From an uncultured Acidobacteriota bacterium (GTDB taxonomy: Bacteria > Acidobacteriota > Vicinamibacteria > Vicinamibacterales > 2-12-FULL-66-21), in contig CAVWLB010000008.1 of assembly GCA_963755695.1 (NCBI GenBank), positions 798,109 through 862,108 on the forward strand: DNA of 64,000 nt, written 5' to 3'. This document shows, piece by piece, positions 1,587 to 19,212 of this stretch. The notes beneath the pieces are model-generated. The model was not told the DNA's origin. It made no database searches and worked only from the letters and a program-made list of their open reading frames with translations. The stretch's first letter is position 1, and every line of letters begins with the position of its first letter. Both the position numbers and the translations under genes were made by a program.

Positions 1587-1778
1587 ATGGCGAAGGCCCG
1601 GCGCACCACTCATCGCAGCAGCAAGGGCAAGAAGCTCTACGCCGTCCGTACCGTGAGCGGACGCTTCAAGGACATCCAGACGTACGAGCGCGCCCACCGC
1701 GCGGATCTGGCGAAGACGTCGAAGGCCGAGAAGCCAGCCCGCAAGAAGGCGGGACGCAAGACCGCGAAGAAGCGCTGA
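1587..1778 (+). CDS. Small, highly basic (Lys/Arg-rich) protein, function unknown
   Basis: 63-aa ORF with GGAGG 5 nt upstream of the ATG. Followed by a strong terminator. Confidence 0.45.
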   Translation: MAKARRTTHRSSKGKKLYAVRTVSGRFKDIQTYERAHRADLAKTSKAEKPARKKAGRKTAKKR

Positions 1779-1821
1779 ATCCAGTTGCGCCCAAACTTCC
1801 GGTGCCGTCTGCGAAATCGGC

Positions 1822-1846
1822 GAGGCTGAAGGCGGCGGTTTGCTAA
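1822..1846 (+). repeat. 25-nt exact copy of tRNA-Ser(GCT) positions ~15-38 (D-loop to anticodon loop)
   Basis: GAGGCTGAAGGCGGCGGTTTGCTAA is identical to 15426-15450 inside the intact tRNA-Ser. Confidence 0.7.
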
Positions 1847-1865
1847 GGCTGCTGGGATTCAGAAC

Positions 1866-1900
1866 GGCCTGAAATCATCGATTTCAGGCCCGTTTTTATT
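1866..1900 (+). terminator. Rho-independent terminator
   Basis: 11-bp perfect stem GGCCTGAAATC/GATTTCAGGCC with a 3-nt loop, followed by TTTTTATT. Confidence 0.8.
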
Positions 1901-2121
1901 GGCTTCGTGGCGTCGGCTCGCGGATGACCGCTTAGGACCTCGTTCGGGCACATTTCTGGGCACACTCCAACCCGCCAATATGTGCCTCAACCGACGCCAA
2001 AGTGTGCCTCTCGATGTCCACGCCGATCACTCGCGTCTGTTTTGGTGCGTCCGGCTTCACGGCAGAATCGTACGCCTCGCTCTTGAACCGGTTTCGTGAA
2101 GTGGCGAGGCAACGCACATCC

Positions 2122-2646
2122 TTAGTCGTCTCCGAGCCTCGGAATTCCCGCCGCGAACCAGACGCCGCCAGTGTTCCGAATCAGAAGCACCGGGCTCGGG
2201 CAGGTTGGCGGCACAGGATCCAGAGTATCGTCGATTCGAAAATCGCCGTTCGGTTCGAGCGGAACGCTGAACGTCGTGTTGTGCTCGACGAACGGAGCGG
2301 CGGCTTCACAGATCAAGGTCGCGAAGACGCTTTGATTGGCGTTCTGTCCGATGCTGTTGCTGCTGGCCAGGAGCAAACCGCTCCCCTTGACCCTGATACG
2401 CCCGTCCGTGTCGATGTCGGCTCTCAACTGGGCGATCCTCCAAGGCCCCGCGCCAGGGAGGACTCCTCTCACGACGTTCAGCTTCACGTTCGGGAACGTG
2501 CCATCCGGGTTCACTGGCCCGGCACCGTTCGAGACCGGGATGACACCAATGCCGCCGTCGAATCTCGCCAGAAAGTCACGCTCATGCGCACTGACCGGAC
2601 CAATAATCCCGAGAGCCATTAGAAATGCTGCTGCTTGTTTCATCAT
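2122..2646 (-). CDS. Secreted hypothetical protein
   Basis: 174 aa with a signal peptide (MMKQAAAFLMALGIIGPVSAHE). The overlapping plus-strand ORF is Arg-rich out-of-frame noise. Confidence 0.5.
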   Translation of the reverse strand: MMKQAAAFLMALGIIGPVSAHERDFLARFDGGIGVIPVSNGAGPVNPDGTFPNVKLNVVRGVLPGAGPWRIAQLRADIDTDGRIRVKGSGLLLASSNSIGQNANQSVFATLICEAAAPFVEHNTTFSVPLEPNGDFRIDDTLDPVPPTCPSPVLLIRNTGGVWFAAGIPRLGDD

Positions 2647-3187
2647 CTTCGTTACCGATCCCTTTCAAAATGCCACTTGACCGTATTCACCCGCTGAATG
2701 AATGTCGTTCCGAATAGCGTGCTCCCACGGTTGGCCCCACCACTCTTCCAACCCGAGCGCGGTGATGCCCGCGATGAGGGGGATCTTCCTGGTGATCTGT
2801 CGCTCGTTTGTGTTTGCAGTTCTTCATATATCAGTGCCTTCTTGCATGGGATCCTGAAGGCCTGCAGCGCGGCAACCGCCGACCCTTCCACTGCTTACTT
2901 CCAGTACCTCGTCTCGTCCCACGCGGTATAGACCAGTACTGCATCTGCCTCCTGTTCTCGAAGGTGTGTCCTCGCTGAAATGCAGGACGGCTCGAGCCCG
3001 CCGGCTGGCGACCAGCGCGGCCTGACCCTCACCAAAGCTCCGCTAATGACCCCATCGGCTCCTCTTGATAAACGCGGTTGCCGCTGCTGACGTGTCATGG
3101 CGGCCAGTGTGCCGCGGGGGCGAACTGGCGACCACCCACAGCAGTCACACAGAACTCGTACGACATCCGTAGGTCCGCAGCGGTAAG

Positions 3188-5527
3188 ATGGAAACAACCA
3201 TGAAAGCTGGCGCTCTGCGGTCATTTGGCGCGCAGCTCAAGGCACTCCGCGAGGCCGCAGGCTTCACGCAGGAGGAGCTCGCGACGATCGCGGGCCTGTC
3301 GGTTCATGCTGTGAGCGCGCTCGAGCGCGGGGAACGACGGCGTCCGCACGTTGAGACCGTGCGCGCGCTCTCCGCGGCACTCGATCTGACTGGTCCGACC
3401 CGTGACGCGCTCCTTGTGAGCGCGCGTGCGCCTGCGAAGAGCGCGCGGGTCGATGAAGTGAGCAGCGCCCCGCTGCCCCTGGCCCCCACGGTCCTACTCG
3501 GTCGCGATGCCGACCTGCAGACGTTGCGTCTCTGGCTCGCTGATCCTGACGCACGCCTCATCACACTCACGGGACCAGGAGGAGTCGGGAAGACTCGTCT
3601 GGCGCTGGAGATCGCACGTGCCGTCGCGGCAGAAGGCAGATCCCGTGTGCTGTTTGTCGGGTTGGCCGCGGTTCGGAACCCTGCGTTCGTGGCGCAGTCG
3701 ATTGCCGAGTCTCTCGGAGTCCTGGACCCCACGGCGCTGGACTTGCCGAGGCGCGCACGGCTCGCGTGCGAGGGTACGCCCACGCTCCTGGTACTCGACA
3801 ACTTCGAACAGGTACTGGCCGCGGCGCCGCTTGTTGCCGATCTCCTCACCGCGGCCGCCGCGCTCCGAGCGCTGATCACCAGCCGCGCCCCTCTACGTGT
3901 GCGAGGAGAGCGTGAGTACGCCGTCGAGCCGCTTGCGTTGGAGGTGGGCGTTGATGCGATGCCGCCTGATGATCTGGCCCGCTCTCCCGCGGTGCGACTA
4001 TTCGTGGAGCGAGTGCGGGACGTGCAACCTGACTTTCGCCTCACGTCCGCGAACGGTCCGGCCGTGACGGCGATTTGTCGCCGGCTCGATGCCCTTCCGC
4101 TCGCCCTCGAGCTTGCGGCCCCATGGATCAAGGTGCTGACGGTCGAGGAACTGCTTCGCCGACTCGCGCGCGATGTCCTGCTCCCGACCGTCGGCCCGCA
4201 CGATCTCCCCGAACGGCAACGGACGATGAATGCGACGGTCGCCTGGAGCTATCAACTGCTTGGCGCGAACGAACAACGCATGTTCCGTCGTCTCGGCGCC
4301 CTGCCAGGGCGGTTTTCGATCGAGGCCGCCGCAGCGGTTCTTGCCGGTCGTGAGGAAGCCGGCGCCTCGACCGACGAGGCGCTCCGCGCAGCGGCCAGCT
4401 TGATCGACAAGAGCCTGCTTCTGCGAGCGGAGAGTTCATTGGCGACTCGTGCGCTGTACCAGATGCTCGAAACCGTGCGCGCGTACGCCGTTCTCGAGCT
4501 CGCCGCAGCCGGCGAGCGCGACGACGCTCTGGCGGGCCTGACGCGCTATTGCACTCGCGAGGCCTCCCTCGCCGCCGAGGGGCTGGTCGGTCCGGCGCAG
4601 GCCGAATGGTTGGATCGCGTGCGTGACGACCTCGAGGGCTACCGCGGCGCGTTGACGTGGCTCATCGAGGTTGGCCGTCCCGCCGAATCGGCCGACATCG
4701 CGTGGGAGCTGATGCACTTCTGGGTGATCCGGGGGCACGCGGCCGAAGGCCTTCAGTGGTATGAACAGATTCTGAACGTGCCGTCCGTTCCGCCCGTTCC
4801 TGAATGTGAAGCGCTGGTCGGAGCAGCGATGATGTGGTACACGCAAGGAGACCTCGCGCCCGCCCACACCGCGCTCACGCGTGCGCGGGCGCTGGCTCGC
4901 GATGCGGGCAATACGCAGATGGTCGCAGAGGCCGAGCATCTTCTGGGGCACGTCGAACATGCCGTGGGCGACGCAAACGCTGCTCGCGATCTATTTACCA
5001 GCAGTCTGGAAGGATTCCGGGCGCTGGCGATCCCGTGGGGGATTGGGAATTCGCTCAACGGCATGGCGAAGGTGGCCTTGGCGATCGGCGATTCCGCCGA
5101 GGCGGAACGCCTGCTCGATGAGGCCACCTCGGTGCTTCGGCAGTGTCCGTGGCACCTGGCGCTGGTATCGTATCGTCGCGCGATGCTGGCGGTGCGGCGC
5201 GGGAACCCCGATGAGGCGATCGCGTTAGCGAGTGAAAGCCTGGCATTCTTCCGGCAACTCCATGACAGGTTCGCGGTCGTGTACGCGATGGTCCCTCTCG
5301 CCGCCGCGGCAGCACTCAAGGGCGACGACCTGTGGGCGGCGCGGATCCTGGGCGCGCGCGCCGCCGTAACCGAACGCACTGGTGCCACGGTCGTTGACAA
5401 ATGGGTGCAGGCCCTCGGACAACAGGCGGAACGGGAGGTCCGCGGACGGCTCGGCCCGGATCGGTGGGCCAGGGCATATGCGTCAGGGCGCAGCAGCTCG
5501 ATCGAGTCGTTGATTGACGGACACTGA
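3188..5527 (+). CDS. STAND-class regulator: N-terminal XRE-type HTH, NB-ARC/AAA P-loop ATPase, C-terminal TPR repeats
   Basis: 779 aa. The HTH is LREAAGFTQEELA...LERGERRRP. Walker A is LTGPGGVGKTRLA. The C-terminal ~300 aa is helical-repeat rich. Confidence 0.85.
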   Translation: METTMKAGALRSFGAQLKALREAAGFTQEELATIAGLSVHAVSALERGERRRPHVETVRALSAALDLTGPTRDALLVSARAPAKSARVDEVSSAPLPLAPTVLLGRDADLQTLRLWLADPDARLITLTGPGGVGKTRLALEIARAVAAEGRSRVLFVGLAAVRNPAFVAQSIAESLGVLDPTALDLPRRARLACEGTPTLLVLDNFEQVLAAAPLVADLLTAAAALRALITSRAPLRVRGEREYAVEPLALEVGVDAMPPDDLARSPAVRLFVERVRDVQPDFRLTSANGPAVTAICRRLDALPLALELAAPWIKVLTVEELLRRLARDVLLPTVGPHDLPERQRTMNATVAWSYQLLGANEQRMFRRLGALPGRFSIEAAAAVLAGREEAGASTDEALRAAASLIDKSLLLRAESSLATRALYQMLETVRAYAVLELAAAGERDDALAGLTRYCTREASLAAEGLVGPAQAEWLDRVRDDLEGYRGALTWLIEVGRPAESADIAWELMHFWVIRGHAAEGLQWYEQILNVPSVPPVPECEALVGAAMMWYTQGDLAPAHTALTRARALARDAGNTQMVAEAEHLLGHVEHAVGDANAARDLFTSSLEGFRALAIPWGIGNSLNGMAKVALAIGDSAEAERLLDEATSVLRQCPWHLALVSYRRAMLAVRRGNPDEAIALASESLAFFRQLHDRFAVVYAMVPLAAAAALKGDDLWAARILGARAAVTERTGATVVDKWVQALGQQAEREVRGRLGPDRWARAYASGRSSSIESLIDGH

Positions 5528-5806
5528 CAGCGAGCGCCACCTTCGACCAGATCCTAGGCCGAACCACAAGAGAAAATGAGGACCAGCACCACGCGGCAAG
5601 TGCACCCAAATTGCTCCTGTCCCCATACACTGCACAACGCGAAGATCGATTTCACTGAGGCGGCTGAAGAACAACGGATCGAAGTTTGGAGGCGGCGCCC
5701 TATTCCCACGCTCCCAGTGACGCGCCACGCCACGTGACCCGACTGAAATGCGCTCGCCAATGAATTTTGCGGAGCACAGGACGTCTTCGGTACCGGCTCC
5801 CGAGGT

Positions 5807-8353
5807 CTATTTCACTCCGACCTTCTGCTGTCCGTGAATCCGATCCACCAGTGCCTGAAACCGCGGATCGTTTCGCAGCTCCTTCAAGTCGTCGTCAGAA
5901 GTGAGTTGGCCCGCCGCGTCGAATCCGCGCGCGACGGCTTCCTCCAAATGCTGGAACGCCGCGTCGGACCGCCCGAGGATGGCCATTCCCCCGGCGTACT
6001 GATAGTGAGCCTCGATCATGGCCGTGCCTTCCGCCTGCGCGGCATTCTGCAGCAGTTTCTCGAACAGCGCTATCGCTTCGTCGGCACGGCGCGCGTGCGC
6101 CAGGGTCGTGGCAAGGTTGCCCATCATCCGGCGCGTGCCTGGAGCAGTCGGGCCCAAAGTACGCATTGCGATCTCCAGCGCCTGTCGTAGCAGCTTTTCA
6201 GATTCGTCGAGCTTTCCTTCCTGGCCCCAGGTGATGGCCAGGTTCATCATCGAGGCCACCGTATTAGGATGTTCTGGACCGTCGACTCGTCGAGCCCGGT
6301 CCAATTCTTCCTGCTGTAGGCTCTCGGCCTCTTTCAGGCGTCCCTGTAACTGAAGGGCCAGACCAACATTGGCAAGGGCGGCACGGGTGTTGCGATGGTC
6401 CGGACCCAGAACGCGCGTCGAGACCGCCAGCACTTCGTGAAAGAGAGTTTCAGCATCCGCATAACGTCCTTGTTCCTGCAGCGTGAGCGCAAGGAGGTTC
6501 TTGGACCACAGCGTTCCGGGATGATCGGGCCCCAGTGCCCGTTCCTCGAGCGCCAGAGTATCGCGACCCAGCTTTTCTGCTTCCGGAACGCGGCCCTGAT
6601 TTTTCAGGTTTGACGTCAGACTGCGCATCGACCGCAGTGTTGCCCCGTGTTCCGGACCCAGCGTGCGCTGCTGATCGGCCAGGGTACGACGGATGAAGCC
6701 CTCCGCCTCGGCGTATTTTCCCTCCTCCGTAAGCGTGTCGGTGAGATAGCTCACCGTCTTCATCGTGTCGGGGTGATCGCGACCGAGCACGCGCTGCTGC
6801 CCGTCCAGCGCCTTGCGAAGCAATCGTTCGGACTGCTCGTGGCGGCCTTCGGATTCGAGCAGGACACCCAGAAGAGCCGTGGACAGCAATGTTTCCGGCG
6901 CCTCTGGTCCCAGCACGCGCGTTTCGGTGGCCACGGCCTGTTCCAGCAAGGTGCGCGCCCGCGCATACAGTCCAAGCTGGAAATAGGTATTCCCCATGAT
7001 TTGAATCAGGCGGGCCTTGACCTGCGGGTCCTGTCCCAGACCGTGCTCGATCTCTGTCGAGGCCTTGTCGAGAATTTCACGCGCCGTGATCGCGTTGCCG
7101 CGCGACTCGCTCGGGTCTGAGACCTCGAACATGCGGGTCATGAAGTCGGCCACTCGCTTCGACGTTTCGGCTTCCCGCCGGGCGCGGTTGCGCTCGATGG
7201 TCATGCTGATCGCGAATCCGACGATGACGGCAGCGAACGCGGCGGTGAAGGCGACCGCAAGACGATTCCTGCGGACGAATTTCCTGGCGGAATAGGCAAG
7301 AGTGGGCGGCCGAGCCGTCACCAGGTCGTCCCGGAGATACCGGGCGAGGTCCGCGGCAAGATCGGAGGGCGAACTGTAGCGGCGCTCGCGTTCGCGCTCC
7401 AGGGCCTTCAAGGTAATCCAGTCGAGGTCGCCACGAAGCTGGCTTGTCAGCTTGTGGAGATCCGTTCCGCGGTGTTCCGCCGCATCGCTCGAGCCGGTGC
7501 TGACACGTGTACTAGGACGCGGCGGGTCTTCTTCACGCAATTCGCGCAGCACCTCGTGGAGCGGCCTGGTCTTCCACTGGCTCACGTCGAAAGGCGGTGA
7601 CCCGGTGAGCAGCTCGTACAGCACGACGCCCAGCGAGTAGACATCCGTGCGAGTATCCACATCGAGGGCGCCGGCTGCCTGCTCGGGGCTCATGTAGCCG
7701 AGCGTGCCCACCATGCCGCCAGCCTGAGTGAAGCCAGCCAGTGTCTCCGTGTCAACCGCGGCCTGCGTCACCTTGGCAATGCCGAAGTCGATGATCCGCG
7801 GGACAGGATGACCGTCGACCTCGGTGACCAGGATGTTCGACGGCTTGAGGTCGCGATGCATGATCGCTTTCTGGTGGGCGTGCTGCACGCCCTCGCACAC
7901 CTCGATCATCAACGCGACACGCTCGCGCGGTCCGAGTCGCTTCTCATCGCAATACGTGGTGATCGGCGGACCGGACACGAACTCCATCACGAAGTAGGGC
8001 TGCCCTTCGGCGGTGGACCCGGCGTCGAAAATCTTCGCGATGGCAGGGTGATTCATGATCGCCAGCGACTGGCGCTCCAGATCGAACCGTTGAAGCGCCT
8101 GGTCGCTGAGGCGTCCGGACTTGACGACCTTGATTGCGACCTGCCGTCTTACCGGCGACGTCTGCTCCGCCAGCCACACCGCGCCCATTCCGCCTTCGCC
8201 CAGTTTGGTGAGCAGACGGTACGGACCGATCGAACCGAGGTCGGAGTCCGCGGCGCGGGAAGGCGTGTCGGGAGAGAAGGCGGTGGCATCGGGATCGGAG
8301 GGAGTCTCGAGGCCGTGCGGATTCGAAGAAGCCCGGTTGACCGGATCGTTCAC
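5807..8353 (-). CDS. Ser/Thr protein kinase with a transmembrane segment and long C-terminal TPR array
   Basis: 848 aa. Kinase motifs GEGGMGAVWLAEQ, HRDLKPSNILV, DFGIAK. A TM helix precedes more than 10 TPR-like repeats. Confidence 0.9.
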   Translation of the reverse strand: MNDPVNRASSNPHGLETPSDPDATAFSPDTPSRAADSDLGSIGPYRLLTKLGEGGMGAVWLAEQTSPVRRQVAIKVVKSGRLSDQALQRFDLERQSLAIMNHPAIAKIFDAGSTAEGQPYFVMEFVSGPPITTYCDEKRLGPRERVALMIEVCEGVQHAHQKAIMHRDLKPSNILVTEVDGHPVPRIIDFGIAKVTQAAVDTETLAGFTQAGGMVGTLGYMSPEQAAGALDVDTRTDVYSLGVVLYELLTGSPPFDVSQWKTRPLHEVLRELREEDPPRPSTRVSTGSSDAAEHRGTDLHKLTSQLRGDLDWITLKALERERERRYSSPSDLAADLARYLRDDLVTARPPTLAYSARKFVRRNRLAVAFTAAFAAVIVGFAISMTIERNRARREAETSKRVADFMTRMFEVSDPSESRGNAITAREILDKASTEIEHGLGQDPQVKARLIQIMGNTYFQLGLYARARTLLEQAVATETRVLGPEAPETLLSTALLGVLLESEGRHEQSERLLRKALDGQQRVLGRDHPDTMKTVSYLTDTLTEEGKYAEAEGFIRRTLADQQRTLGPEHGATLRSMRSLTSNLKNQGRVPEAEKLGRDTLALEERALGPDHPGTLWSKNLLALTLQEQGRYADAETLFHEVLAVSTRVLGPDHRNTRAALANVGLALQLQGRLKEAESLQQEELDRARRVDGPEHPNTVASMMNLAITWGQEGKLDESEKLLRQALEIAMRTLGPTAPGTRRMMGNLATTLAHARRADEAIALFEKLLQNAAQAEGTAMIEAHYQYAGGMAILGRSDAAFQHLEEAVARGFDAAGQLTSDDDLKELRNDPRFQALVDRIHGQQKVGVK

Positions 8354-8564
8354 GTCAGGCCTCCAAGCACCATGAAATTGCGGACGCCAAGAATACCACC
8401 AGTCCGAAAGACACGACTTGAATGGCGCAGAGCCAGTCGGCTAGAAGTCAGCGTCTGGAGCGACAGACACCGAGAGCGAGACGACGTGACTGGCGAGAGC
8501 GTGTTGCTTGTGGAAGAGGCGGCGCGCTGACTGTCAGTTTCGGGCTCATGGCGTCGCCTCGCTA

Positions 8565-8710
8565 GGGCTACCGAAACTGAGGTTCCACGACCTCCGACAC
8601 ACAGTCGTGACACGGCTGCTCGAGGCGGGCGAACCGGACCACGTTGTCGAATCGATCACCGGCCACCGTTCGCGACGGATGTTGGCGTACTGTCGATGGA
8701 AAGAATGGGG
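8565..8710 (+). pseudogene. Tyrosine-recombinase (phage integrase) C-terminal remnant
   Basis: LRFHDLRHTVVTRLLEAGEPDHVVESITGHRS matches the integrase catalytic box II region. No N-terminal part exists in any frame. Local GC is depressed. Confidence 0.5.
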
Positions 8711-9048
8711 GCTCGGCTCCGGAGCGCCCGCCTGCTCCGTATCAACCCAAGCCACCCCGAGGTTCCATCCGAATCGGACAGCGCGCCTTGGCGATTGGTT
8801 ATCGAGCCGCACAGCCCATCGTTCGAAGGCTGGTGCGTGTCAACTCGGCCGCCGGAGCGCGGTGGTCGGCTCGGCGCTCCGCTTCGGATCGTGGAAAACG
8901 GTTCCTCCGCGGGTGGCCTACGATGCGGCGTGGGCTGGGGTTTGCCGGACGAATCTGTGATTAGCTTACGAATCTGACGGTACGAGAGCGTAAATACGCA
9001 CCAAGATCCCGCCGAATCGTCAGGCACGAGACTTGATGAAATTGCGCC

Positions 9049-9531
9049 GTGGCATACCGAGGCGACACGACGGATCCCCTCGAGAACATCATCAACAGGC
9101 AGCGATCCATCAGGAGGGTCTTCCTCGTGGTAGTCGCCATGTGGGTCGTCCCGCACATGCGTCAACTCAACTGGTCTGTGTTCAATGGCGTCTTTCCTGA
9201 CCGAGCAGCGGACGCAGCTCCCACGTTCAACACCGTTCCGATTGGCCCTGGAGTTCCGAGTACGGCCGCAGGTCCGCCTACAAAAATGAGCGCGAGCGCG
9301 CTCGAGCAGTTGCTTCGAAGCGCACCGGCGTCAAAGCGGCCGCCACAAGACGTGCGCTGCCTGCCAATCCAGGGCGGTTGGGATTACGTCTGCCTCTATC
9401 AAACTGACGTCCCCCAACCGCGCACGCAGTTGAAGATTGGCGTTCGCGTGAGCGCGTACGGGATCGTGCAGGCGTCGGAACCCCAGCCGCTGGACACTCC
9501 GCTCGTGTCTCCCCAACCCAAGGCCCGGTAA
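9049..9531 (+). CDS. Hypothetical protein with one predicted TM helix
   Basis: 160-aa ORF in a lower-GC patch next to the integrase remnant. Only weak coding signal. Confidence 0.25.
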   Translation: MAYRGDTTDPLENIINRQRSIRRVFLVVVAMWVVPHMRQLNWSVFNGVFPDRAADAAPTFNTVPIGPGVPSTAAGPPTKMSASALEQLLRSAPASKRPPQDVRCLPIQGGWDYVCLYQTDVPQPRTQLKIGVRVSAYGIVQASEPQPLDTPLVSPQPKAR

Positions 9532-9631
9532 CGAGCGTTGCAGCCGACGGCCGGTGCGCCTGTGCAGCGCTGTTGCTGAAACGCGGACGTTACGTGCTTG
9601 AACAGCAGAAAGCGATCCCAGTCTGTGAAGC

Positions 9632-11092
9632 TCACCGGCCCGCGAACGCCGCGAGCGCGGTCTCGGCGACCGGCACGCAGTCGAGCGTGTCGCGCCGTGG
9701 ATGGGCCTCCCAGAAGTCGCGGCGCAGAAAGACGGCCCGGTCCATACGATCGTACGGCGCGTTGCGGACGAAGAGGTACTCGCGTTGAAACCGCGGCGAC
9801 GACACCATCTCGAGAATCATCTTGCGGCGGCGCGCACCGATGATCTCGTCCGGGCCGGCGCCGCGGAGCAGCGCCAGGCCCGACAGGTACCCCTCGACGA
9901 TGTCGGGGCGCTGCTCGATGACCCAGCGCATGTCGGTCTTCGAGTCCTGGGGGCCGTCGGGATCGAACGTGCCGTGCCTCGCGATGTAGGGCGTGTTCAA
10001 TCCAAGCGCGTCGATGTGGACAGCATCCACGATAAACGGGAGCGCGCCTCCGTAGCTGCTGGAGATCGTCGTCGTGGGGCTCGCCACCGACGCGAGCCAC
10101 GCATAATAGGCCGCGTTGCCCGGTCGCGGACCGCCGCCTCCCTGCGCCAGCAACACGCCAAGGTCCGCCGCGAGCGCCAGCCCGACGGCGGCACTGACCT
10201 GTCTCCACCGACGGTCGCGTACGACGCGGGTCAGACCTGTCATCGCCACGAGCACCCAGGCCGGGGCCACGTGGACGAATTGGCGCCAGACGGGGAATGC
10301 GGTCGGCGGATCTCCCCCCGCGCTCGCCATGTAGACGATGTACGCGACGAAGAGCGCCAGGCACGTCAATCCACGCCGATCGCCGGCGCGCCTCACGGCG
10401 ACGGCCCCAATCGCCAGAAAGGCGACCACCACCGCGTGCGCGAGCATCCAGCCGCCGACGTACACCAGGCCGAGCCGCACGTGTCCGATGCCGCCGCCCG
10501 CGACCTTCGCGTAGTAGGTGTTGGGCGCGAGCGCGCCATATGCCACCCAACGGTGAACCGCGATCGCCATGAGCGTCAGCCCGCCGGCGATCGCCGTCGC
10601 GGCGACCCATCGCCAGCGCTCACGCCGCCAGGCGAGCGCCAGCACGTCGACACCCGCGACGAGCGCGCCCTCGGGCCGCATCGCGACGAGGAGCGGCGCG
10701 ACGATCGGCTGCCACTGCGCTGGACCGACCAGCGCAAGCGTGACGAGGCTGGTGAACGCCACGGCCTCCATGCCCGACGCCGCATAGAACGTGAATGGCA
10801 AGTACAGCGCGAGGAAGACGCCAGTCAGCACGGCAGGACGATCGTCGCGGCGCCGGAAGAGCACGGCAATCACGGTCAGCGCCGCCGCAGTCCCGAACAC
10901 CTTGGACGCGATCCGGACATCTACGCCGAGCCACGCGGCGCCGCCGAGCAGCAACGTCCACAGCAGCGATGAGTAGCCTTCGACGTGCTCGCCGGTACGA
11001 TTCCATGCGCCGAGTCCATACCCTTCCGCCAGATGGCGCGCATATCTAAACGTGATATAGGCATCATCGAGCGTCAGGCGCGACAAGAGCAC
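9632..11092 (-). CDS. GT-C-type integral-membrane glycosyltransferase (PMT/ArnT-like)
   Basis: 486 aa. N-terminal DDAYITFRYARHLAEGYG motif, 10 or more TM helices, and a soluble C-terminal domain. Confidence 0.55.
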   Translation of the reverse strand: MLLSRLTLDDAYITFRYARHLAEGYGLGAWNRTGEHVEGYSSLLWTLLLGGAAWLGVDVRIASKVFGTAAALTVIAVLFRRRDDRPAVLTGVFLALYLPFTFYAASGMEAVAFTSLVTLALVGPAQWQPIVAPLLVAMRPEGALVAGVDVLALAWRRERWRWVAATAIAGGLTLMAIAVHRWVAYGALAPNTYYAKVAGGGIGHVRLGLVYVGGWMLAHAVVVAFLAIGAVAVRRAGDRRGLTCLALFVAYIVYMASAGGDPPTAFPVWRQFVHVAPAWVLVAMTGLTRVVRDRRWRQVSAAVGLALAADLGVLLAQGGGGPRPGNAAYYAWLASVASPTTTISSSYGGALPFIVDAVHIDALGLNTPYIARHGTFDPDGPQDSKTDMRWVIEQRPDIVEGYLSGLALLRGAGPDEIIGARRRKMILEMVSSPRFQREYLFVRNAPYDRMDRAVFLRRDFWEAHPRRDTLDCVPVAETALAAFAGR

Positions 11093-11219
11093 CGTCAGCG
11101 TTGCGACGACCGCTCATCGCCGCTGCCGCAAGCAGGATCACTTCGCGTTTCGAAAAGACGGCGGCCGGGACCGGGCGCAGGTCGTCAGATGGCATGGCAG
11201 ATCCCTGCGGGAATGCACG

Positions 11220-11639
11220 TCATCGCGCTACCGGCGGTCCATACACCGCGCCGACGATCGCGCCACAGATTGTCGCCCCGACGACGTACTCGAACACTTC
11301 CGCGACGCCAAGGACGGAAGAGATCGGCTGGGTCACATAGTTCCGGACCACGACAAAGCTCACCAGCACCAAGCCAATCAACGCGCCGAAACGGAGCCCT
11401 TCGATGATTCCGCGTCCGTTCGCGTTCAGGCGAGCGTACATCGAGGCAGCAATGAAGAATCCGACCAGTTGTACGGCATAACCGATTGGCAGTCTTCGGA
11501 CGATCTCCGGGTCAGGCCTGAAGGCCGCCGCATTCGCCGCAGAAATGCTTCCAAGCATTCCGTGATGGATGAACGCACCGAAAGGGATCGAGACGAACCA
11601 TGCCGTCCCGGCGGCTGCGGCGATTCGTCGATGATTCAT
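11220..11639 (-). CDS. Small polytopic membrane protein
   Basis: 139 aa with 4 hydrophobic segments. ATGA overlap with the upstream permease fragment. Confidence 0.35.
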   Translation of the reverse strand: MNHRRIAAAAGTAWFVSIPFGAFIHHGMLGSISAANAAAFRPDPEIVRRLPIGYAVQLVGFFIAASMYARLNANGRGIIEGLRFGALIGLVLVSFVVVRNYVTQPISSVLGVAEVFEYVVGATICGAIVGAVYGPPVAR

Positions 11640-12043
11640 GATGGCTCCCCTGGCGCGTGGTCTGGTTTCCAGCGCAGCAGCCGGCGTTCCAGTCGGCCGA
11701 CGACACCACCGACGAGCAATACTCCGGCAGCGAGAACCGCCATCCCGGCGAACACTCCGGTCGTATCGAACACGCCTTCGGCCTGGGCGATCAGATACCC
11801 GATTCCTCTCGAAGCGCCAAGATATTCCCCAACTACCACTGGGACGATCGCCATGCCAATGCTGATGTGCAGACTGGAGAAAATCCAGGTCAACGCACTC
11901 GGGACGAGCACATGGCGCACCAATTGAGCCTCTGACGCGCCGAGCATCCGCGCGTTGTTGATGATTGCCGCGTCCACTTCACGAACGCCGCGATACGTAT
12001 TGAAGAAGACGACGAAGAAGACCACCGTGACGCCAAGCGCCAC
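11636..12043 (-). pseudogene. ABC-transporter permease (NitT/TauT/SsuC type) C-terminal fragment
   Basis: EAA-loop region NARMLGASEAQLVRHVLVPSA. The N-terminal half is absent and no ATPase or binding-protein partner gene is present. Confidence 0.55.
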
Positions 12044-12060
12044 CTTGGACCAGATCCCGA

Positions 12061-12255
12061 GGCCTCATCGGCACGGTTGTGAGCTGGTGGTCATCACAAT
12101 TTATTGCGAGTCTGCTCTACGACATCGAACCGCGCGACCCGGTCACACTGGTGAGTGCGGCGGTCACGCTGACGGCGGTCGGTGCGATCGCGGGTTGGCT
12201 CCCTGCCTACCGTGCGTCACGGATCGATCCGTCACAAGTACTGCGAGACATCTGA
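12061..12255 (+). pseudogene. FtsX/MacB-type permease C-terminal fragment
   Basis: LLYDIEPRDPVTLVSAAVTLTAVGAIAGWLPAYRASRIDPSQVLRDI* is the canonical FtsX C-terminus. It abuts the opposite-strand permease fragment. Confidence 0.5.
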
Positions 12256-12428
12256 GCAGGGCGACGCGCCTCGAGGATCGATCGGCTGAGGCACTCCGAG
12301 CCGCGGCAGCCGCTGCCAATCGACTCTCACAGTGAGGCACCAGCCTATTCGTCCGCTTAAGTCGCCTTGTGGCGACCGATGTAGCCATCGCCGTTCAGTA
12401 AACATATCGGCGTTAGGAGGACCTATTG

Positions 12429-12506
12429 GTGACCCAGATTCTCAGCAGTTGGAACCAGATGGTGAGCTGGCTAAGCCAACTCCATAGACTCCGACGAGCC
12501 GCATAA
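12429..12506 (+). other. sORF-A: 25-codon small ORF inside the left copy of a ~115-nt repeat
   Basis: AGGAGG 8 nt upstream of a GTG start. The ORF encodes VTQILSSWNQMVSWLSQLHRLRRAA* and has a paralogue, sORF-B. Confidence 0.35.
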
Positions 12507-12543
12507 TCAAGCGGCGCAGGAGCTTACGAATCACTTCCAGCTG
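12429..12543 (+). repeat. Direct repeat copy A (~85% identical to copy B)
   Basis: Aligns to 14008-14120. Contains an internal GAGCTGGCT/AGCCAACTC stem. A conserved ~37-nt tail ends in CACTTCCAGCTG. Confidence 0.7.
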
Positions 12544-12553
12544 GCTCGAGTAT

Positions 12554-13861
12554 CTAGGTTGCGCCGCGGGCTTTCAGGAAACCCGCGATGTCCGTAAGCG
12601 CGTGCTTCGTCGCCCACATTACGGGCGTCTCGCCGTGCGTGTCCTTCGGTGACGGATCGGCGCCGAACTCCAACAGAATCGCCGCACACTCCGTCCGATG
12701 GTCCATCGTCCGCCCGCGACTGTCCTTGTGGCACAGCTCGTGGAGCAGCGTCACTCCATCAACCGTTGGGTAATTCGGATCGAGGCCGCCGCGCGTCAGC
12801 AACTCGCGCAGCATATCGGGCCGCTCGAGCAGATAGGAGTGGCACCCGCCCGCCTGCGGATGGACTTTGAAACCGGCGTCGAGTAATCGGCGCATCAGCT
12901 TGCGCCGGCCGCAGGTCACGACGGCCGTGAACACACCCCCGCACCCGGCGAGTGCCGTCTCGGGTCGTTCGGTCACGATCCGCATGACCTCGTCGTCCTC
13001 GCCCTTCCACACCAGGTCGTACGGATCGAGGAAACCGCCATGCGCCTCGAGCAGTCTTCGGATCTCCGGTGTCTTCGCGGCATAGACGGCGTTGCCGCTG
13101 GCGTTGACGAAACCGTTGGGATCGGCGTGATGTTTCAGCAGCAGTTCGACCATCTCCCGGTCGCCACGCCCCGCCGCGGCGTGCAAGGCGGCGCCGCGCT
13201 CGGACGAATCGGCGTCGGGCCACGTCGGGTCCGCGCCGCGTTCCAGCAGCAGGCGGACGATGTCGAGACGGCCGAATTCGGCGGCGGCAGAGAGCGGGCG
13301 ACGATCGTCGGGGCGCTGCTCGGAGATGCGTGAGGGGGCGGCGTCGAGCATCGACCGCACCGCCGCCAGATCGTTCAACGCGGAAGCGACCGTCAGATCG
13401 TACGTCGCACCGCGGCCGATGAGCAGTCGAGCCAGAGGCACGTTGCCGTTGCCGGGCCACACGCGGCGGCCCGGCCGCCAGCGCCTCCACAGCAGCCACG
13501 TCAGGCCGTTGGCGTAGCAGCGCCATCTTGACAGAGGCGCCTGCCGCGGGCCGCCCCAGATCGCCAGGTCAATGGGCTGTTTATCCTGCGGCGCGTAACC
13601 CTCGAACGACCCGACCCCGGCGCCGTGAATCGCGTGAATGTCGGCGCCACGATCGAGCAGCAGCGTCACCACGTCTGCCGATCCGCCGATGACCGCGCGG
13701 TGCAGAGGATGACCGCCAGCGCGGTTGATGTCGTCGACGAGCGATGGCTGCTGATCGAGGAAGGCGCGTACGCGCGCCAGCTCGCCGGCTTCGGCGGCGT
13801 CATGGATCGGATGATCCTCGGGCACGGTCGACGGCACGAGCCGTCGCGACGGATCAATCAT
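12554..13861 (-). CDS. Ankyrin-repeat protein
   Basis: 435 aa with multiple ANK repeats (G-HPLHRAV..G..DVV.LLLDRGAD consensus recurs). Confidence 0.85.
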   Translation of the reverse strand: MIDPSRRLVPSTVPEDHPIHDAAEAGELARVRAFLDQQPSLVDDINRAGGHPLHRAVIGGSADVVTLLLDRGADIHAIHGAGVGSFEGYAPQDKQPIDLAIWGGPRQAPLSRWRCYANGLTWLLWRRWRPGRRVWPGNGNVPLARLLIGRGATYDLTVASALNDLAAVRSMLDAAPSRISEQRPDDRRPLSAAAEFGRLDIVRLLLERGADPTWPDADSSERGAALHAAAGRGDREMVELLLKHHADPNGFVNASGNAVYAAKTPEIRRLLEAHGGFLDPYDLVWKGEDDEVMRIVTERPETALAGCGGVFTAVVTCGRRKLMRRLLDAGFKVHPQAGGCHSYLLERPDMLRELLTRGGLDPNYPTVDGVTLLHELCHKDSRGRTMDHRTECAAILLEFGADPSPKDTHGETPVMWATKHALTDIAGFLKARGAT

Positions 13862-14007
13862 GTGCGCGGAATCATATTAGCTGCCGCCAGCGTGAGGGGC
13901 ACCGAGCCCGCGTCAAAGCGATCGGTCGCAACGATCCGAAAACCTCGGGCAACCGGACGCGGTTTCAGCGGATCTGCCGAACGAGCGAAGTGGTTGTCAG
14001 GAAAGAA

Positions 14008-14085
14008 GTGACTCGGATTTTCACCAGTTGGAACCAGATCGCGAGTTGGCTAAGCCAGCTCCAGGGGCTCCAAGGAGTCGCATAG
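14008..14085 (+). other. sORF-B: paralogous 25-codon small ORF in repeat copy B
   Basis: GTG start. Encodes VTRIFTSWNQIASWLSQLQGLQGVA*. Frame and stop position are conserved with sORF-A. Confidence 0.3.
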
Positions 14086-14120
14086 TAAGCGGGCAGGAGT
14101 TTACGAGTCACTTCCAGCTG
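14008..14120 (+). repeat. Direct repeat copy B
   Basis: See copy A. Confidence 0.7.
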
Positions 14121-14272
14121 CGTGGGGCTAGCTCCTTGGTGCGGGCGAGCGGCTTGCTGAACGCTGCGGCGTTTAGCGCGAGTTAATGCGTGTTAGGCTC
14201 CCTCCGTTAGGTGCGGCGATGTCAAAGGTGCGAAGACACACTCCGCGATCACACCATGGCGGCGAGGACAAC

Positions 14273-14881
14273 ATGACGACGAGTCGAATTAGTGCCGTGG
14301 CAATCGCGCTGAGTATTGCGTTCGGATTTGTTGGCGGCGCCGGCTCGACGCAGCGTTCAGCGAAAGACCAGAACCTGTCCGGCACGATCGCTTCTTCCAA
14401 ACGGATGGCGGACGGTAAAGAGTGGACGACTGCCAATCTGAACGTCAACACGTCGTCATCCTATTGTTACGACGATGCGGAACCGAACTGCCGTCGATAT
14501 GGCCGTTTGTATACGTGGGAATCGGCGCAGCGAGGATGTCAGTCGCTAGGAGATGGATGGCGGTTGCCGACCGACGACGAATGGCGTCAGATGGCGAAGC
14601 ACTATGGTGGACTTGGGAACGATTCGCCTGACAAGGGTAAAGCGGCGTACACGGCACTCCTGAGCGGAGGGACGTCAGGCTTCAATGCCGTGCTGGGTGG
14701 CAATCGCTCCATTGATGGACAGTACGACCGGCTGGAGGCACACGGAATTTACTGGACGGTATCCGAAAACGATCCGATCACCGCACCGTTCTATAACTTC
14801 GGCAAAGGCAGTCAAGCGCTCTATCGTCAGCCCCAGGGCCAGAAGCAGATGGCAGTTTCCGTGCGTTGCGTCAGGGAGTGA
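14273..14881 (+). CDS. FISUMP (Fibrobacter succinogenes major paralogous) domain protein, secreted
   Basis: GRLYTWESAQ...CQSLGDGWRLPTDDEWRQM is the TIGR02145 signature. GAGGA sits 7 nt before the ATG at 14273. An N-terminal hydrophobic signal is present. Confidence 0.75.
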   Translation: MTTSRISAVAIALSIAFGFVGGAGSTQRSAKDQNLSGTIASSKRMADGKEWTTANLNVNTSSSYCYDDAEPNCRRYGRLYTWESAQRGCQSLGDGWRLPTDDEWRQMAKHYGGLGNDSPDKGKAAYTALLSGGTSGFNAVLGGNRSIDGQYDRLEAHGIYWTVSENDPITAPFYNFGKGSQALYRQPQGQKQMAVSVRCVRE

Positions 14882-15372
14882 CCGCTCAAAATTCGGGCCC
14901 GCGAGATCCAATCGTAGTGGAACGCATTCGACGGTGAGGCCGCAATTACTCCTGCCTAGTCGCCCAGTGGTTTTCCAAAATGCCGGAATGTCGCTCGGAA
15001 GCGACTAAGACGTTCACCGTTACCGTCATCGCGCCGAAGCTTAACCACATCGCTCCAGTCGAGAACAGCGGTTCCGCATTCGCTGTCCGCCGGCCCTGTC
15101 GATGCGTGAGTTCGTGCGCCATCACGAGCTCGGCCAAGACCGCGGGCCCGCCCATCGAGATCGGTGCCAATAGTGGCGCCCAGAAAGTCCAAGGGAACTA
15201 CTGCACAATTTGCTGCACGATCCCGGAGCCGGGCGCCTGACTCGCGAGATCGCTAGCAATTTCTTCGACTCAACGTGATGACGTGAGCGCGAATCGCAAT
15301 GGGAAATTTGAGAATTCTGGCCGAATTCGCTCAGGTCTCGGACCGAAAAACCGTCGCCCCTCGATCGAGAAG

Positions 15373-15401
15373 TTTACGCAAGTGCCGATTTTACGTATAC
15401 T
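15373..15401 (+). promoter_or_regulatory. Sigma70-like promoter for tRNA-Ser
   Basis: TTTACG, 17-nt spacer, TATACT. The tRNA begins 10 nt downstream. Confidence 0.5.
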
Positions 15402-15411
15402 TGGCGTCTGC

Positions 15412-15506
15412 GGTGAGGTGGCCGAGAGGCTGAAGGCGGCGGTTTGCTAAACCGTTGTAGGGTCTTTAAAACCCTACCCAGGGTTCGAATCCCTGCCTCA
15501 CCGCCA
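15412..15506 (+). tRNA. tRNA-Ser (anticodon GCT)
   Basis: Folded by hand. Acceptor GGTGAGG/CCTCACC, 3-bp D-stem, anticodon loop UUGCUAA, long variable arm, T-loop TTCGAAT, discriminator G, encoded CCA. Confidence 0.9.
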
Positions 15507-15776
15507 TAACAAGTCCAATAATAACAATAACTTACTATTCTAAAAGCTCGGACAAATCCCTGCGTCATCGCCCGTTAAGTCGCTTCGACGGACATCCCAC
15601 CTCGCATTGACACGCAGGCTCGCAATCAGCCTCTTTCGCTCGACGATCGACATTGCCACCCACCGGTCCTGGGCGGCCCGCACATGATCCTTTGACTCAT
15701 CAATATTAGATGATACTGTCGCCCGCTGTTGAGCTGTCTCACAGGAGGACTGTGGAGCTGCCTCGCGGAGGACAAA

Positions 15777-16529
15777 ATGAACAGAGCAATATTCGGATTC
15801 TTGGTCGGAATCGCCCTGACATCCGCGCCAGCGGCGCAGGCGCAGGACAAACCGACCTCATACCTGATGGGCACCTACTACCGTTGCCCGCAGGGCGACG
15901 TTGCACGGGTCGATGCGATCTTCAAGGAGCAGGTCACGCCGCTCCTGAAGGCCGCGCAGACCGCGGGCAATATCGCAACCTTCGGGTGGGCCAAGCATGC
16001 AGAGGGTGGTGAATGGCGGCGTTTGCTGTACATCGCCGGCACGGATCTCGAGAAGCTGGCCGCCGCGCGCGACGCGCTCACCAAGTCGCTGATGGCGCCC
16101 GAGCACGTGAAGGCGTTCGAGGAGTTCGGCCGCACGTGCTCGTCGCACGACGACTACATCTGGCGGTCGAAGGCGAGTTCCCAGCCGCTCGACGCGGTGG
16201 CCCGCGTGCGTGCACCCTTCGCCATGTCCACCTACTTCGTGTGCAACGCCCACGAGGGTGAAGCCGACGAAATTGTCGTCGCCGCCTTCGCTCCGCTGCT
16301 CAACCAGCGAGTGAAGGACGGAACGATCGCCTCATGGAACTGGATCGAGCACATGTTCGGTGGACAGTACCGCCGCGCCCTGGTCCTCGACGGCAAGGAT
16401 GAGACGACGCTGCTTAAGAACTGGGCGACGTTGCAGGACGATTTCGAAAAGGCTGCACCCAACCTGGGACGCCGTTTCACGGAGGTCTGCAGCAGCCACT
16501 CCGACTATATCTGGGACCTGAGCAACTGA
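15777..16529 (+). CDS. Secreted protein made of two tandem homologous ~100-aa domains (novel Cys-containing domain)
   Basis: Signal peptide MNRAIFGFLVGIALTSAPAAQA. Domain 1 ends ...RTCSSHDDYIW and domain 2 ends ...EVCSSHSDYIW, with alignable cores. GGAGGAC RBS upstream. Confidence 0.65.
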   Translation: MNRAIFGFLVGIALTSAPAAQAQDKPTSYLMGTYYRCPQGDVARVDAIFKEQVTPLLKAAQTAGNIATFGWAKHAEGGEWRRLLYIAGTDLEKLAAARDALTKSLMAPEHVKAFEEFGRTCSSHDDYIWRSKASSQPLDAVARVRAPFAMSTYFVCNAHEGEADEIVVAAFAPLLNQRVKDGTIASWNWIEHMFGGQYRRALVLDGKDETTLLKNWATLQDDFEKAAPNLGRRFTEVCSSHSDYIWDLSN

Positions 16530-16593
16530 GCCCGGCCGGCTGAGCGCGAAATGCGTGCAGTGGTGCCCAGGTTCCGGGGAACGGCCGATAACA

Positions 16594-16902: not shown

Positions 16903-16962
16903 CCAACTGGTGAGGTCAGCGTCACTGGCCGCAGCCGCGAAGGCGGGCCTCCATCGATGGTG

Positions 16963-19195: not shown

Positions 19196-19212
19196 AGCGC
19201 CGTTTCACACCT

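Follow-up and report, generated by a model that had tools for sequence, protein, structure and literature searches.

The window analysed here, a 64,000-nt stretch of DNA from an uncultured Acidobacteriota bacterium, carries an intact tRNA-Ser(GCT) gene and, 13.6 kb upstream on the same strand, an exact copy of part of its 5′ half. The interval between the two holds regulatory, kinase, membrane-protein and ankyrin genes together with several gene remnants, and the gene nearest to the copy on its left encodes a small conserved lysine-rich protein, p63 (Table 1).

Table 1. Features at the tRNA-Ser(GCT) locus of the window.
Feature	Position	Strand	Evidence or remark
p63, 63-aa lysine-rich conserved small protein	1587-1778	+	ORF; last gene left of the relic; 4929 homologs
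CCGTCTGCG	1805-1813	+	Several loci have these bases right before, or overlapping, the start of the tRNA
Truncated, probably displaced 5′ half of tRNA-Ser(GCT)	1822-1846	+	Linear positions 15-39; attL-type core
Element arm Y	1847-1990	+	19-nt spacer, terminator, two GGGCACA repeats
174-aa secreted protein, unknown function (cargo)	2122-2646	-	ORF, Pfam search; no homolog adjoining p63 in L250-L252
HTH-AAA(STAND)-TPR regulator	3188-5527	+	Pfam
Ser/Thr protein kinase (STPK) with TPR repeats (cargo)	5807-8353	-	Pfam
Tyrosine recombinase, 49-aa C-terminal remnant	8538-8684	+	PF00589, 3e-8; not functional
139-aa membrane protein, weakly DUF1761-like	11220-11639	-	Pfam
ABC permease fragment (gene remnant)	11636-12043	-	BPD_transp_1, profile positions 58-182 only
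Ankyrin gene	12554-13861		Flanking direct repeats of ~115 nt
Upstream arm of the intact tRNA	15138-15411	+	Direct repeats, ORF tail, promoter-like site
Intact tRNA-Ser(GCT)	15412-15506	+	ARAGORN; Rfam tRNA, 56.8 bits; attR-type site

Both the intact gene and its partial copy had been reported in a preliminary description of this DNA, and both stand. The 25-mer GAGGCTGAAGGCGGCGGTTTGCTAA occurs exactly twice in the window, at 1822-1846 and at 15426-15450, with 25/25 identity and on the forward strand in both cases. Dinucleotide-preserving shuffling produced such a match in 0/100 trials, even with three mismatches allowed, in agreement with the earlier statement that the recurrence lies beyond chance; the AT-rich stretch described directly 3′ of the tRNA is likewise present. 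The copy covers positions 15-39 of the 95-nt gene, running from the D-loop to the end of the anticodon loop, and therefore stops on the last base of the 7-nt loop TTGCTAA. The match breaks off abruptly at both ends: compared in register, the 80 nt on the left are 35 % identical and the 120 nt on the right 26 %. No tRNA similarity was found past the loop and no 3′-half similarity near 1847-2100, a region in which ARAGORN and Rfam detected nothing. Because the copy at 1822 lacks tRNA positions 1-14 as well as a promoter, the left border is not an intact attL. Many phyla have this very 25-mer in their tRNA-Ser(GCT) genes (genome scan, at least 120 loci), and the exact match therefore shows an origin from tRNA-Ser, not recent copying from the gene at 15412. 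Just 5′ of the copy, a match of 9-11 nt relates TGCCGTCTGCG to TGGCGTCTGCG, the sequence that precedes the tRNA start; since 5.5 % of shuffles reached an equal score (fraction 0.055), the match is suggestive only. L157 and L179 carry CCGTCTGCGGTGAGG, and the stretch at 1805-1813 may just possibly be what remains of the old tRNA upstream region.

Directly after the copy lies a conserved arm of about 145 nt, for which we coined the name Y. Its signature consists of a spacer, a GGCCTGAAAT-N5-ATTTCAGGCC terminator, a T-run and a pair of GGGCACA repeats with 12-nt spacing. The window fits this pattern, with an intrinsic terminator hairpin and T-run at 1866-1890 and direct repeats at 1946 and 1958 that keep the 12-nt spacing and are probably arm-type integrase sites. 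Window positions 1822-1987 are 73-80 % identical (152-178 nt) to the tRNA-Ser 5′ half junctions of L024, L032, L041 and L063, and the window's Y is 80 % identical to that of L175 over 178 nt. A metagenome scan with the Y terminator as query returned at least 120 loci; Y follows a tRNA-Ser 5′ half, joined at the same base, in at least 120 soil-metagenome contigs and in several Acidobacteriota genomes. Among the matches listed, 116 Y copies could be evaluated: the 5′ half is full in 92, truncated in 14 and missing from 10, which places the window copy, with 13 others, in the truncated 12 %. The breakpoint at the last loop base recurs in over 100 loci. Among the same matches, the loop-to-terminator spacer measures 22 nt in 95 of 107 copies (19 nt in the window), and two GGGCACA repeats occur in 90 of 120, spaced by 12 nt in 85. 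The terminator stem belonged to the search pattern, so its invariance is uninformative. Of the approximately 117 interior 25-mer matches listed from other genomes, 9 are orphan 5′ halves whose break falls on the loop end or close to it. A BrnT/BrnA pair lies 3′ of Y in 46 of 88 loci and is absent from the window. The same terminator scan applied to viral contigs gave no match, and so no sign of the elements being phages. A T-arm 1.1 kb past the orphan half of L018 was considered as the missing tRNA-Ser 3′ half and rejected, its acceptor end CCTCCCAGCCA matching the 3′ end of the window's tRNA-Gln. A group I/II intron in the anticodon loop was also rejected, because Rfam gives no match to Y and an intrinsic terminator stands at its beginning.

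Six contigs contain both ends of such an arrangement: a displaced 5′ half with Y, then 2.2-4.6 kb, then an intact tRNA-Ser in the same orientation. Displaced and intact halves are identical in five of the six pairs, D-loop variants included. In L171, the catalytic domain of an integrase stops just 5′ of the tRNA, and GGGCACACT repeats are found on both arms. L243 and L245 carry a full-length tyrosine integrase ending about 40 nt 5′ of tRNA-Ser, with arm repeats inside the 3′ end of its gene, a promoter in the gap that separates the integrase stop from the tRNA, and TraG, VirB11-like, RepB-primase and HTH_17 genes upstream. The promoter and the 5′ part of the tRNA are supplied by the element in all three of these relatives. 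The integrase family comprises 6741 homologs, typically of 387 aa, with PF14659 and PF00589 domains. Integrase-derived upstream sequences were also found 5′ of displaced halves, which indicates tandem arrays or attP. Elements of both orientations flank one tRNA-Ser in L171, whose two integrases are 58 % identical over 163 aa, and in L245, where a second Phage_integrase gene lies on the opposite strand. A complete element with both ends around a full-length integrase was not found among L243, L245 and L246-L248; because these contigs begin inside the element, they show neither how far an intact one extends nor its left end.

At the right-hand end of the window's block, the arm upstream of the intact tRNA carries the direct repeats CTGCACAAT and CTGCACGAT at 15201-15221, over which an ORF (14980-15240) ends, and a promoter-like TTTACG-17-TATACT at 15373-15401. 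The same arm also precedes the displaced 5′ half and Y in L157, L237, L153, L202 and L134. Its repeats are of the CTGCACA type, with no GGGCACA pair there, whereas the left arm has GGGCACA; a matching GGGCACA arm with a 387-aa integrase directly 5′ of the intact tRNA is not present in the window. This upstream arm could have been supplied by an element of another subtype, or could equally be native flank. In the intact tRNA itself, the 3′ half is resident, and the 5′ half with its promoter was possibly supplied by the element.

The preliminary description had called the intervening ~13.6 kb an island-like block, and its inventory was largely recovered: the recombinase remnant, a cut-down transporter gene (the ABC permease fragment), the ankyrin gene with its flanking repeats and the STAND-ATPase/STPK pair are all there. 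Homologs of the STAND gene, at 31-39 % identity, occur in the Y-bearing loci L194, L205, L211 and L197. Many Y-bearing loci contain STPK genes; L137 has one in the interval from Y to the intact tRNA. The gene for the 139-aa membrane protein is 86 % identical at the nucleotide level to L175 1043-1473, about 0.65 kb past the Y arm of that contig (219-396). The recombinase remnant shares just 39 % identity with the tRNA-Ser integrase family (tblastn, P0130 and P0196, E ~2e-4) and comes from a different tyrosine recombinase. Positions 1847-15411 contain no other tyrosine-recombinase sequence and no integrase of the 387-aa family, which makes the block a relic rather than an active member of the class. 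A compositional deviation of the block, raised in the preliminary description, was not borne out: GC skew shows no deviation, and GC content and the tetranucleotide signature lie within the control range (r = 0.949; control blocks 0.911-0.955).

Relatives of the source organism were compared with the window. Contigs of the same species from a second sample (L249 and L253, 98.6-98.9 % identity) have a layout equal to that of the window. In L250-L252, where p63 is 92 % identical, homology to the window spans 1535-1778 only and ends at the p63 stop codon, and no tRNA-Ser lies within 10 kb of p63. Exact-protein searches with p63, P0001 and the Fib_succ_major protein found no record, and a crystallin protein and the p63 homolog P0242 each led only to a same-species contig with the window's layout, the only close relative. 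L001 and L002, which have homologs of the Mo-oxidoreductase gene at 246-1409 (82-85 % identity), share nothing to the right of that gene and so yield no empty site. Thus, no empty-site relative was found among L249, L253, L250-L252, L001 and L002, and the more distant of these lose synteny. The 13.6-kb block is probably now fixed and immobile in the source species.

In our judgement the 25-mer is quite probably the remnant of an original tRNA-Ser(GCU) 5′ half that was displaced by a reverse-orientation tyrosine-integrase element. According to this model, the element would recombine with the tRNA gene by strand exchange within the 7-nt anticodon loop, in the "reverse" orientation, and come to rest on the 5′ side of the tRNA; the position of the junction and the geometry of the six two-ended loci are directly visible. 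At its right end the element would bring its integrase gene and arm repeats, along with a promoter and its own copy of the tRNA 5′ half. In relatives an integrase indeed abuts the tRNA, and repeats occupy both arms, where they may serve as arm-type sites for the integrase. The element-borne 5′ half would then join the resident 3′ half, so that the essential tRNA stays working, while the old promoter and 5′ half would be pushed to the far left end, with the conserved Y directly after them. There, Y would set a strong intrinsic terminator 19-22 nt past the loop, which may stop transcription from the orphaned promoter and thereby insulate the displaced half. Insertion into the anticodon loop, leaving the island 5′ of the tRNA, was one of the options named in the preliminary description, and it is the one that the conserved Y junction, the two-ended loci and the integrase ~40 nt before the tRNA in relatives speak for. 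In the window the event would be an old one: the displaced half would have lost its first 14 nt and its promoter, and the family integrase and its arm would have gone; the mismatched arm subtypes, the ordinary composition of the block and the equal layout in a second sample also point to age. Given the different left and right repeats and the loss of the integrase, the 13.6 kb is most likely a decayed composite, the product of at least two successive insertions plus deletions.

Of the other readings, one accepts the fragment and Y as a genuine relic of the family but sees no island in the 13.6 kb between the fragment and the intact tRNA. The relic would then be a dead attL or attP stub, moved by rearrangement or left after deletion of the element, the intact tRNA would be an unoccupied native site, and their shared orientation would be coincidence or a leftover. 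We consider this unlikely. The fragment lies upstream on the same strand, exactly as in the six two-ended loci; genes from deep within the block (11220-11639, STAND, STPK) recur in Y-bearing loci of other genomes; the block is rich in gene remnants, as is typical of island decay; and direct repeats with an ORF ending over them make the upstream arm resemble an element arm. That same arm is nevertheless the flank of displaced halves in five loci, as native flank would be, the two arms differ in subtype, and the block has neither an integrase nor a compositional signal. Elsewhere, among the matches listed, 10 Y copies lack any part of the tRNA and another 14, in foreign surroundings, are truncated, and L227 extends for 12 kb past Y with neither integrase nor tRNA.

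The other possibility mentioned in the preliminary description, a tandem duplicate of the tRNA-Ser(GCT) gene since eroded by deletion, would explain a tRNA-derived 25-mer in the same orientation, preceded by a short match to the tRNA upstream region. It is the least probable of the alternatives: identity stops exactly at the loop end and runs into a non-tRNA arm conserved in at least 120 loci, no 3′-half remnant follows the 25-mer, and random deletion would not repeat one breakpoint across genomes. We also doubt strongly that the 5′ half and terminator form a functional small RNA gene or 3′-UTR element selected as a tRNA-half mimic. In the window the copy is without its promoter and its first 14 nt, and there is no Rfam match. 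In favour of this reading, 92 of the 116 copies evaluated among the matches listed retain a complete 5′ half between an intact promoter-like region and a perfect terminator, displaced and intact halves agree even in D-loop variants in five of six pairs, and the fold of 1779-1900 gives a z-score of -2.4. The conservation is nevertheless explained by the element arm and the universal conservation of the tRNA segment, and the search pattern itself included the terminator stem. It is very unlikely, too, that the displaced half represents, in place of a passive scar, a promoter-driven, terminator-capped tRNA-Ser 5′-half RNA made by the element family. Mimicry of a tRNA half would be one conceivable role for such an RNA; others would be a decoy for nucleases that target the anticodon arm and a sensor coupling element maintenance to the tRNA promoter. 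If so, the switching between reverse and classical integration at one loop would be an evolved strategy by which two lineages share one tRNA.

Displacement by a reverse-orientation element, the reading we prefer, has precedents. The Islander collection holds 159 islands with a 5′ tDNA fragment against 3760 with a 3′ fragment (3919 in total), and 2083 islands with an anticodon-centred attP (PMC4383910). The preliminary description was right to call a duplicated 5′/anticodon segment unusual (159/3919), and the class is a known one (PMC4383910). The 5′-fragment class (PMC4383910; PMC6563490, PMC1635311) resembles the present family in that the 5′ fragment precedes the regenerated tRNA and shares its orientation, and in involving a tyrosine integrase. 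An element resting on the 5′ side must, in both cases, supply the 5′ part and the promoter. The present family differs from that class in its host and target, soil Acidobacteriota (annotated Vicinamibacterales) and tRNA-Ser(GCU), in the terminator 22 nt past the loop, in the promoter wedged between integrase stop and tRNA and in the 12-nt-spaced repeats on both arms; the window copy differs further as a truncated relic without integrase. In classical "A" sublocation elements (Williams 2002, NAR 30:866) the crossover likewise centres on the anticodon loop, the tyrosine integrase has a SAM-like domain at its N-terminus, and a single tRNA can bear tandem arrays. They differ in carrying the segment from the loop to the 3′ end, in lying 3′ of the tRNA and in leaving a 3′ fragment behind, an arrangement of which the one here is the mirror image. 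CalSub-E1 of Ca. Caldiarchaeum subterraneum (PMC6563490), set beside the present family by description only, is unlike it in being archaeal. Finally, L243, L245 and L246 resemble those ICE/IME elements that combine a tyrosine integrase gene with an excisionase-like HTH_17 gene: they carry TraG-D_C, a T2SSE/VirB11-like ATPase, RepB_primase, DUF932, RadC and HTH_17, followed by the integrase. The window block differs from these, none of the TraG-D_C, T2SSE/VirB11-like, RepB_primase, DUF932, RadC and HTH_17 genes being found in it.

Reverse-orientation integration is thus an already known minority class, and the window is probably an additional case of it, not a new class. For the window itself, a puzzling 25-mer becomes an ordinary, dated scar, and for annotators 1847-15411 becomes decayed island material beside a much-used tRNA-Ser hotspot. 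Island finders that are tuned to 3′ fragments, or that need an integrase beside the fragment, will miss such islands, and the signature of a 5′ half, 22-nt spacer, fixed terminator and 12-nt-spaced repeats could be used to map them in metagenomes. More useful than the window scar is the result concerning the hotspot: on the sequence evidence, tRNA-Ser(GCU) in soil Acidobacteriota of the Vicinamibacterales type is a very frequent target of reverse-orientation tyrosine-integrase elements, some of which look conjugative.

The preliminary description had reported an exact duplicate of part of tRNA-Ser(GCT) in the window and dismissed chance as its source, and both statements hold. The 25-mer GAGGCTGAAGGCGGCGGTTTGCTAA occurs twice, no further copy was found in the window with up to three mismatches allowed, and no shuffled sequence yielded a match. 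It corresponds to linear positions 15-39 of the 95-nt tRNA gene: it starts in the D-loop, and its final base is also the final base of TTGCTAA, the anticodon loop. A lysine-rich ORF of 63 aa has its stop codon 43 nt before the displaced copy; tRNA positions 1-14 are missing from the copy, and a search for a promoter-like site at this left site found none. Identity around the two copies is at background level except for one short match, TGCCGTCTGCG near the displaced copy versus TGGCGTCTGCG, which in the intact gene is located immediately upstream of the tRNA start. As an equal score arose in 5.5 % of shuffles, this match is only suggestive of a leftover from upstream of the tRNA.

Coordinates of the features within the window
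Feature	Position	Strand	Remarks
63-aa lysine-rich ORF	1587-1778		
25-mer, displaced copy	1822-1846		
Intrinsic terminator	1866-1890		strong; 3' of the 25-mer copy
GG(G/C)CACA repeats	1946 and 1958		
Tyrosine-recombinase remnant	8538-8684		49 aa; not of the integrase family; only recombinase trace in the block
139-aa gene	11220-11639		
Transporter gene remnant	11636-12043		only one in the block with Pfam support
Candidate second transporter remnant	~12100-12257		judged by eye only
Direct repeats, ~115 nt	12429-12543 and 14008-14120		82-93 % identical; flank ankyrin gene
ORF	14980-15240		terminates over the right-arm repeats
Upstream (right) arm of intact tRNA	15138-15411		~270 nt
Right-arm repeats	15201-15221		CTGCACAAT and CTGCACGAT
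Anticodon-arm-derived hairpin	~15336-15360		
tRNA-Ser(GCT)	15412-15506	+	ARAGORN; Rfam concordant
25-mer, intact copy	15426-15450		
gltX and PLD-like gene	22382-25219		broken across several reading frames; gltX start 23721
tRNA-Gln(CTG)	33409-33482		3' end …GGTTCGAATCCCTGCCTCCCAGCCA

With each species represented by one genome, a scan located the 25-mer at no fewer than 120 loci, and the matches listed include Acidobacteriota, Alphaproteobacteria, Gemmatimonadota, Myxococcota and Planctomycetota. Because the 25-mer is universal across phyla, its exact identity proves an origin from tRNA-Ser(GCU) and says nothing about age. Nine interior matches among those listed were located outside any tRNA; all nine are complete tRNA 5' halves that break off where the anticodon loop ends, or close to that point, and then run into unrelated DNA, and orphan tRNA-Ser 5' halves are thus not rare in other genomes. 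Four of them (comparison loci L024, L032, L041 and L063) continue into sequence homologous to window 1847-~1990, 73-80 % identical over 152-178 nt, which we call the Y arm.

Scanning metagenomes for the Y terminator pattern, GGCCTGAAAT-N5-ATTTCAGGCCCGTTTTT, returned at least 120 loci, while a scan of viral contigs gave no match. Among the loci listed, 116 copies could be evaluated: 92 carry a promoter-like region and a full 5' half, 14 (the window included) a truncated half, and 10 no tRNA part. In 95 of the copies listed, 22 nt separate the terminator from the end of the loop. Downstream of the T-run follows a conserved stretch closing with two GG(G/C)CACA repeats, both present in 90 of 120 copies and spaced by 12 nt in 85. 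An Rfam search of the 25-mer copy and Y matched no family. Y is a widespread element end and window 1822-1990 a Y-type attL relic; we have little doubt that this site is the att relic of a reverse-orientation element, that is, one on the 5' side of the tRNA.

The neighbours of Y recur as well. A BrnT-like toxin ORF directly follows it (up to 700 nt past Y) in 46 of the 88 scan loci (L123-L242) with enough sequence, a BrnA/CopG-like antitoxin is also present in the inspected loci L137, L171, L185, L236 and L032, and STPK and STAND genes are further repeated companions. No BrnT/BrnA-type pair follows Y in the window.

In six loci (L137, L171, L185, L199, L226, L236) a Y junction is followed on its own strand, after 2.2-4.6 kb, by an intact tRNA-Ser(GCT), which is the arrangement of the window at smaller scale. 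In L171 the gene adjoining the tRNA terminates in a tyrosine-recombinase domain (PF00589), and the GGGCACACT pair of Y recurs within 120 nt before the tRNA. The C-terminal region of the L145 integrase retrieved 6741 relatives, typically of 387 aa with PF14659 and PF00589, several annotated as Vicinamibacterales or Acidobacteriota. In L243 and L245 the full-length integrase stops ~40 nt before tRNA-Ser, with the repeat pair AGGGACAAT within the 3' end of its gene and TTGTGCGACAATAGTTAGCT occupying the gap; upstream lie genes for TraG-D_C, a VirB11-like ATPase, RepB_primase, DUF932, RadC and an HTH_17 protein. The integrase is likewise present in L246-L248, preceded there by RadC and HTH_17. Together with the two-ended loci, these intact arrangements place the element 5' of the tRNA, to which it supplies promoter and 5' half; the original ones are left at the element's far end, ahead of Y. 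The Y junction, the six loci and L243/L245 thus bear out, as mechanism and geometry, the earlier proposal of integration at the anticodon loop with the island on the 5' side; its alternative, that the fragment remains from a deleted second tRNA-Ser gene, was rejected.

Integrase-derived upstream sequence also precedes displaced halves in L215, L145, L178, L165, L241, L180 and L144. In these loci and L175, the 5' half and Y come directly after the integrase 3' end or arm repeats and no 3' half is present, which points either to tandem arrays or to attP of excised circular forms in the metagenomes. L171 (12101-12544, minus strand) and L245 (10106-11476, minus strand) hold a second integrase, encoded on the opposite strand and directly adjoining the 3' side of the same tRNA-Ser, so elements of both orientations flank one tRNA. 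That of L171 is 58 % identical to its reverse-type integrase, and the downstream arm bears AGGGACA-type repeats in inverted orientation; that of L245 is accompanied by an HTH_17 gene. Displaced and intact halves are identical within the locus in five of the six pairs (all except L199), despite D-loop variants between loci and differing upstream promoters; host-matched elements, gene conversion or selection may be the cause. Many CGTATACTT-type tRNA promoters have upstream of them a hairpin, with altered loop, that derives from the tRNA anticodon arm (L022, L003, L226, the window, and L137 ~60-90 nt upstream of the intact tRNA, GAAGGCGGTGGTTTGAAAAACCGTTGTAGGG versus tRNA GAAGGCGGCGGTTTGCTAAACCGTTGTAGGG). 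It spans the crossover point and is therefore not an att junction.

The right arm of the window has a repeat pair different from that of Y, and a promoter-like TTTACG-17-TATACT. The same arm stands ahead of displaced halves and Y in L157, L237, L153, L202 and L134, and ahead of another element in L018; it represents either native flank or an element arm belonging to a different subtype. Between the two sites, in the block 1847-15411, a search for a family integrase found none. The 139-aa gene shares 86 % nucleotide identity with a gene 0.65 kb after Y of L175, and STAND and STPK homologs are present in several Y-bearing loci, links that argue for at least 1847-11650 being cargo of the element. 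Mismatched arms, together with the lack of junctions, point to two or more successive insertions and later deletions. We consider it likely that the relic reading extends to the whole and that 1847-15411 forms a single decayed island, probably composite, with the two sites as its borders.

For the preliminary description's island-like block, composition is uninformative: the tetranucleotide signature correlates with the rest of the window at r = 0.949, inside the control range of 0.911-0.955. Of the contents listed there, the recombinase remnant and the ankyrin gene with flanking repeats were recovered; of the truncated transporter genes one is Pfam-supported and the second was seen by eye only. 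The contigs L249 and L253 both end at the ~115-nt repeat, as expected of an assembly break at repeated sequence.

These two contigs of another sample, which share 98.9 % and 98.6 % identity with the window, were the only close relatives found. Both share its layout, fragment and Y included, which indicates that the relic is fixed in this species. In more distant relatives synteny breaks down, to the right of the Mo-oxidoreductase gene in L001 and L002, and in L250-L252 precisely where the 63-aa gene reaches its stop codon; in the latter three neither a tRNA nor Y nor any homolog of the 174-aa protein is present. None of these contigs showed an empty site. The 63-aa protein, named YjhX/UPF0386 or HU-like in some sources, is very widely conserved (4929 homologs); its gene has differing contexts in related species, and nucleotide homology between L250-L252 and the window is restricted to 1535-1778.

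Directly 3' of the tRNA, the AT-rich stretch noted previously was confirmed (48 nt) and is followed by AATCCCTGCGTCATCGCC (within 15507-15572); 16 of 18 positions in this sequence agree with the 3' end of the tRNA itself, from T-loop to acceptor. It looks like a tiny relic of classical 3'-side integration, a case resting mainly on position since chance 16-mer matches of similar quality occur elsewhere in the window. Between tRNA-Ser(GCT) and the gltX start that follows it there are 135-250 nt in ~19 loci of other Acidobacteriota and Gemmatimonadota, and in one further locus gltX lies 5.2 kb away; in the window 8.2 kb (15507-23720) separate the two, with crystallin-like, FAD oxidase, GH5, BBE fragment and PLD-like genes, and the far end of this stretch showed neither integrase nor 3' fragment. 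The split frames of gltX and the PLD-like gene, together with 41 gaps in 9.9 kb against same-species L253, make assembly indels likely, and some apparent pseudogenes of the window may be artefacts. Orphan tRNA-Gln 3' ends occur in L018 (~5441, 1.1 kb after the tRNA-Ser 5' half, behind a PIN/antitoxin pair) and beside truncated Y junctions in L129 and L132, which suggests tRNA-Gln as another integration target in this clade.

Integration that displaces 5' tDNA is a known minority, with 159 islands in Islander versus 3760 with 3' fragments, and 2083 islands have an anticodon-centred attP (PMC4383910). The window feature represents the same kind of integration as the 5'-fragment islands, although in decayed form: the mechanism is already known and this copy is dead. 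Our literature search found no publication on this tRNA-Ser element family in Acidobacteria. The family is abundant in soil Acidobacteriota and its signature is clean, which makes it worth a note.
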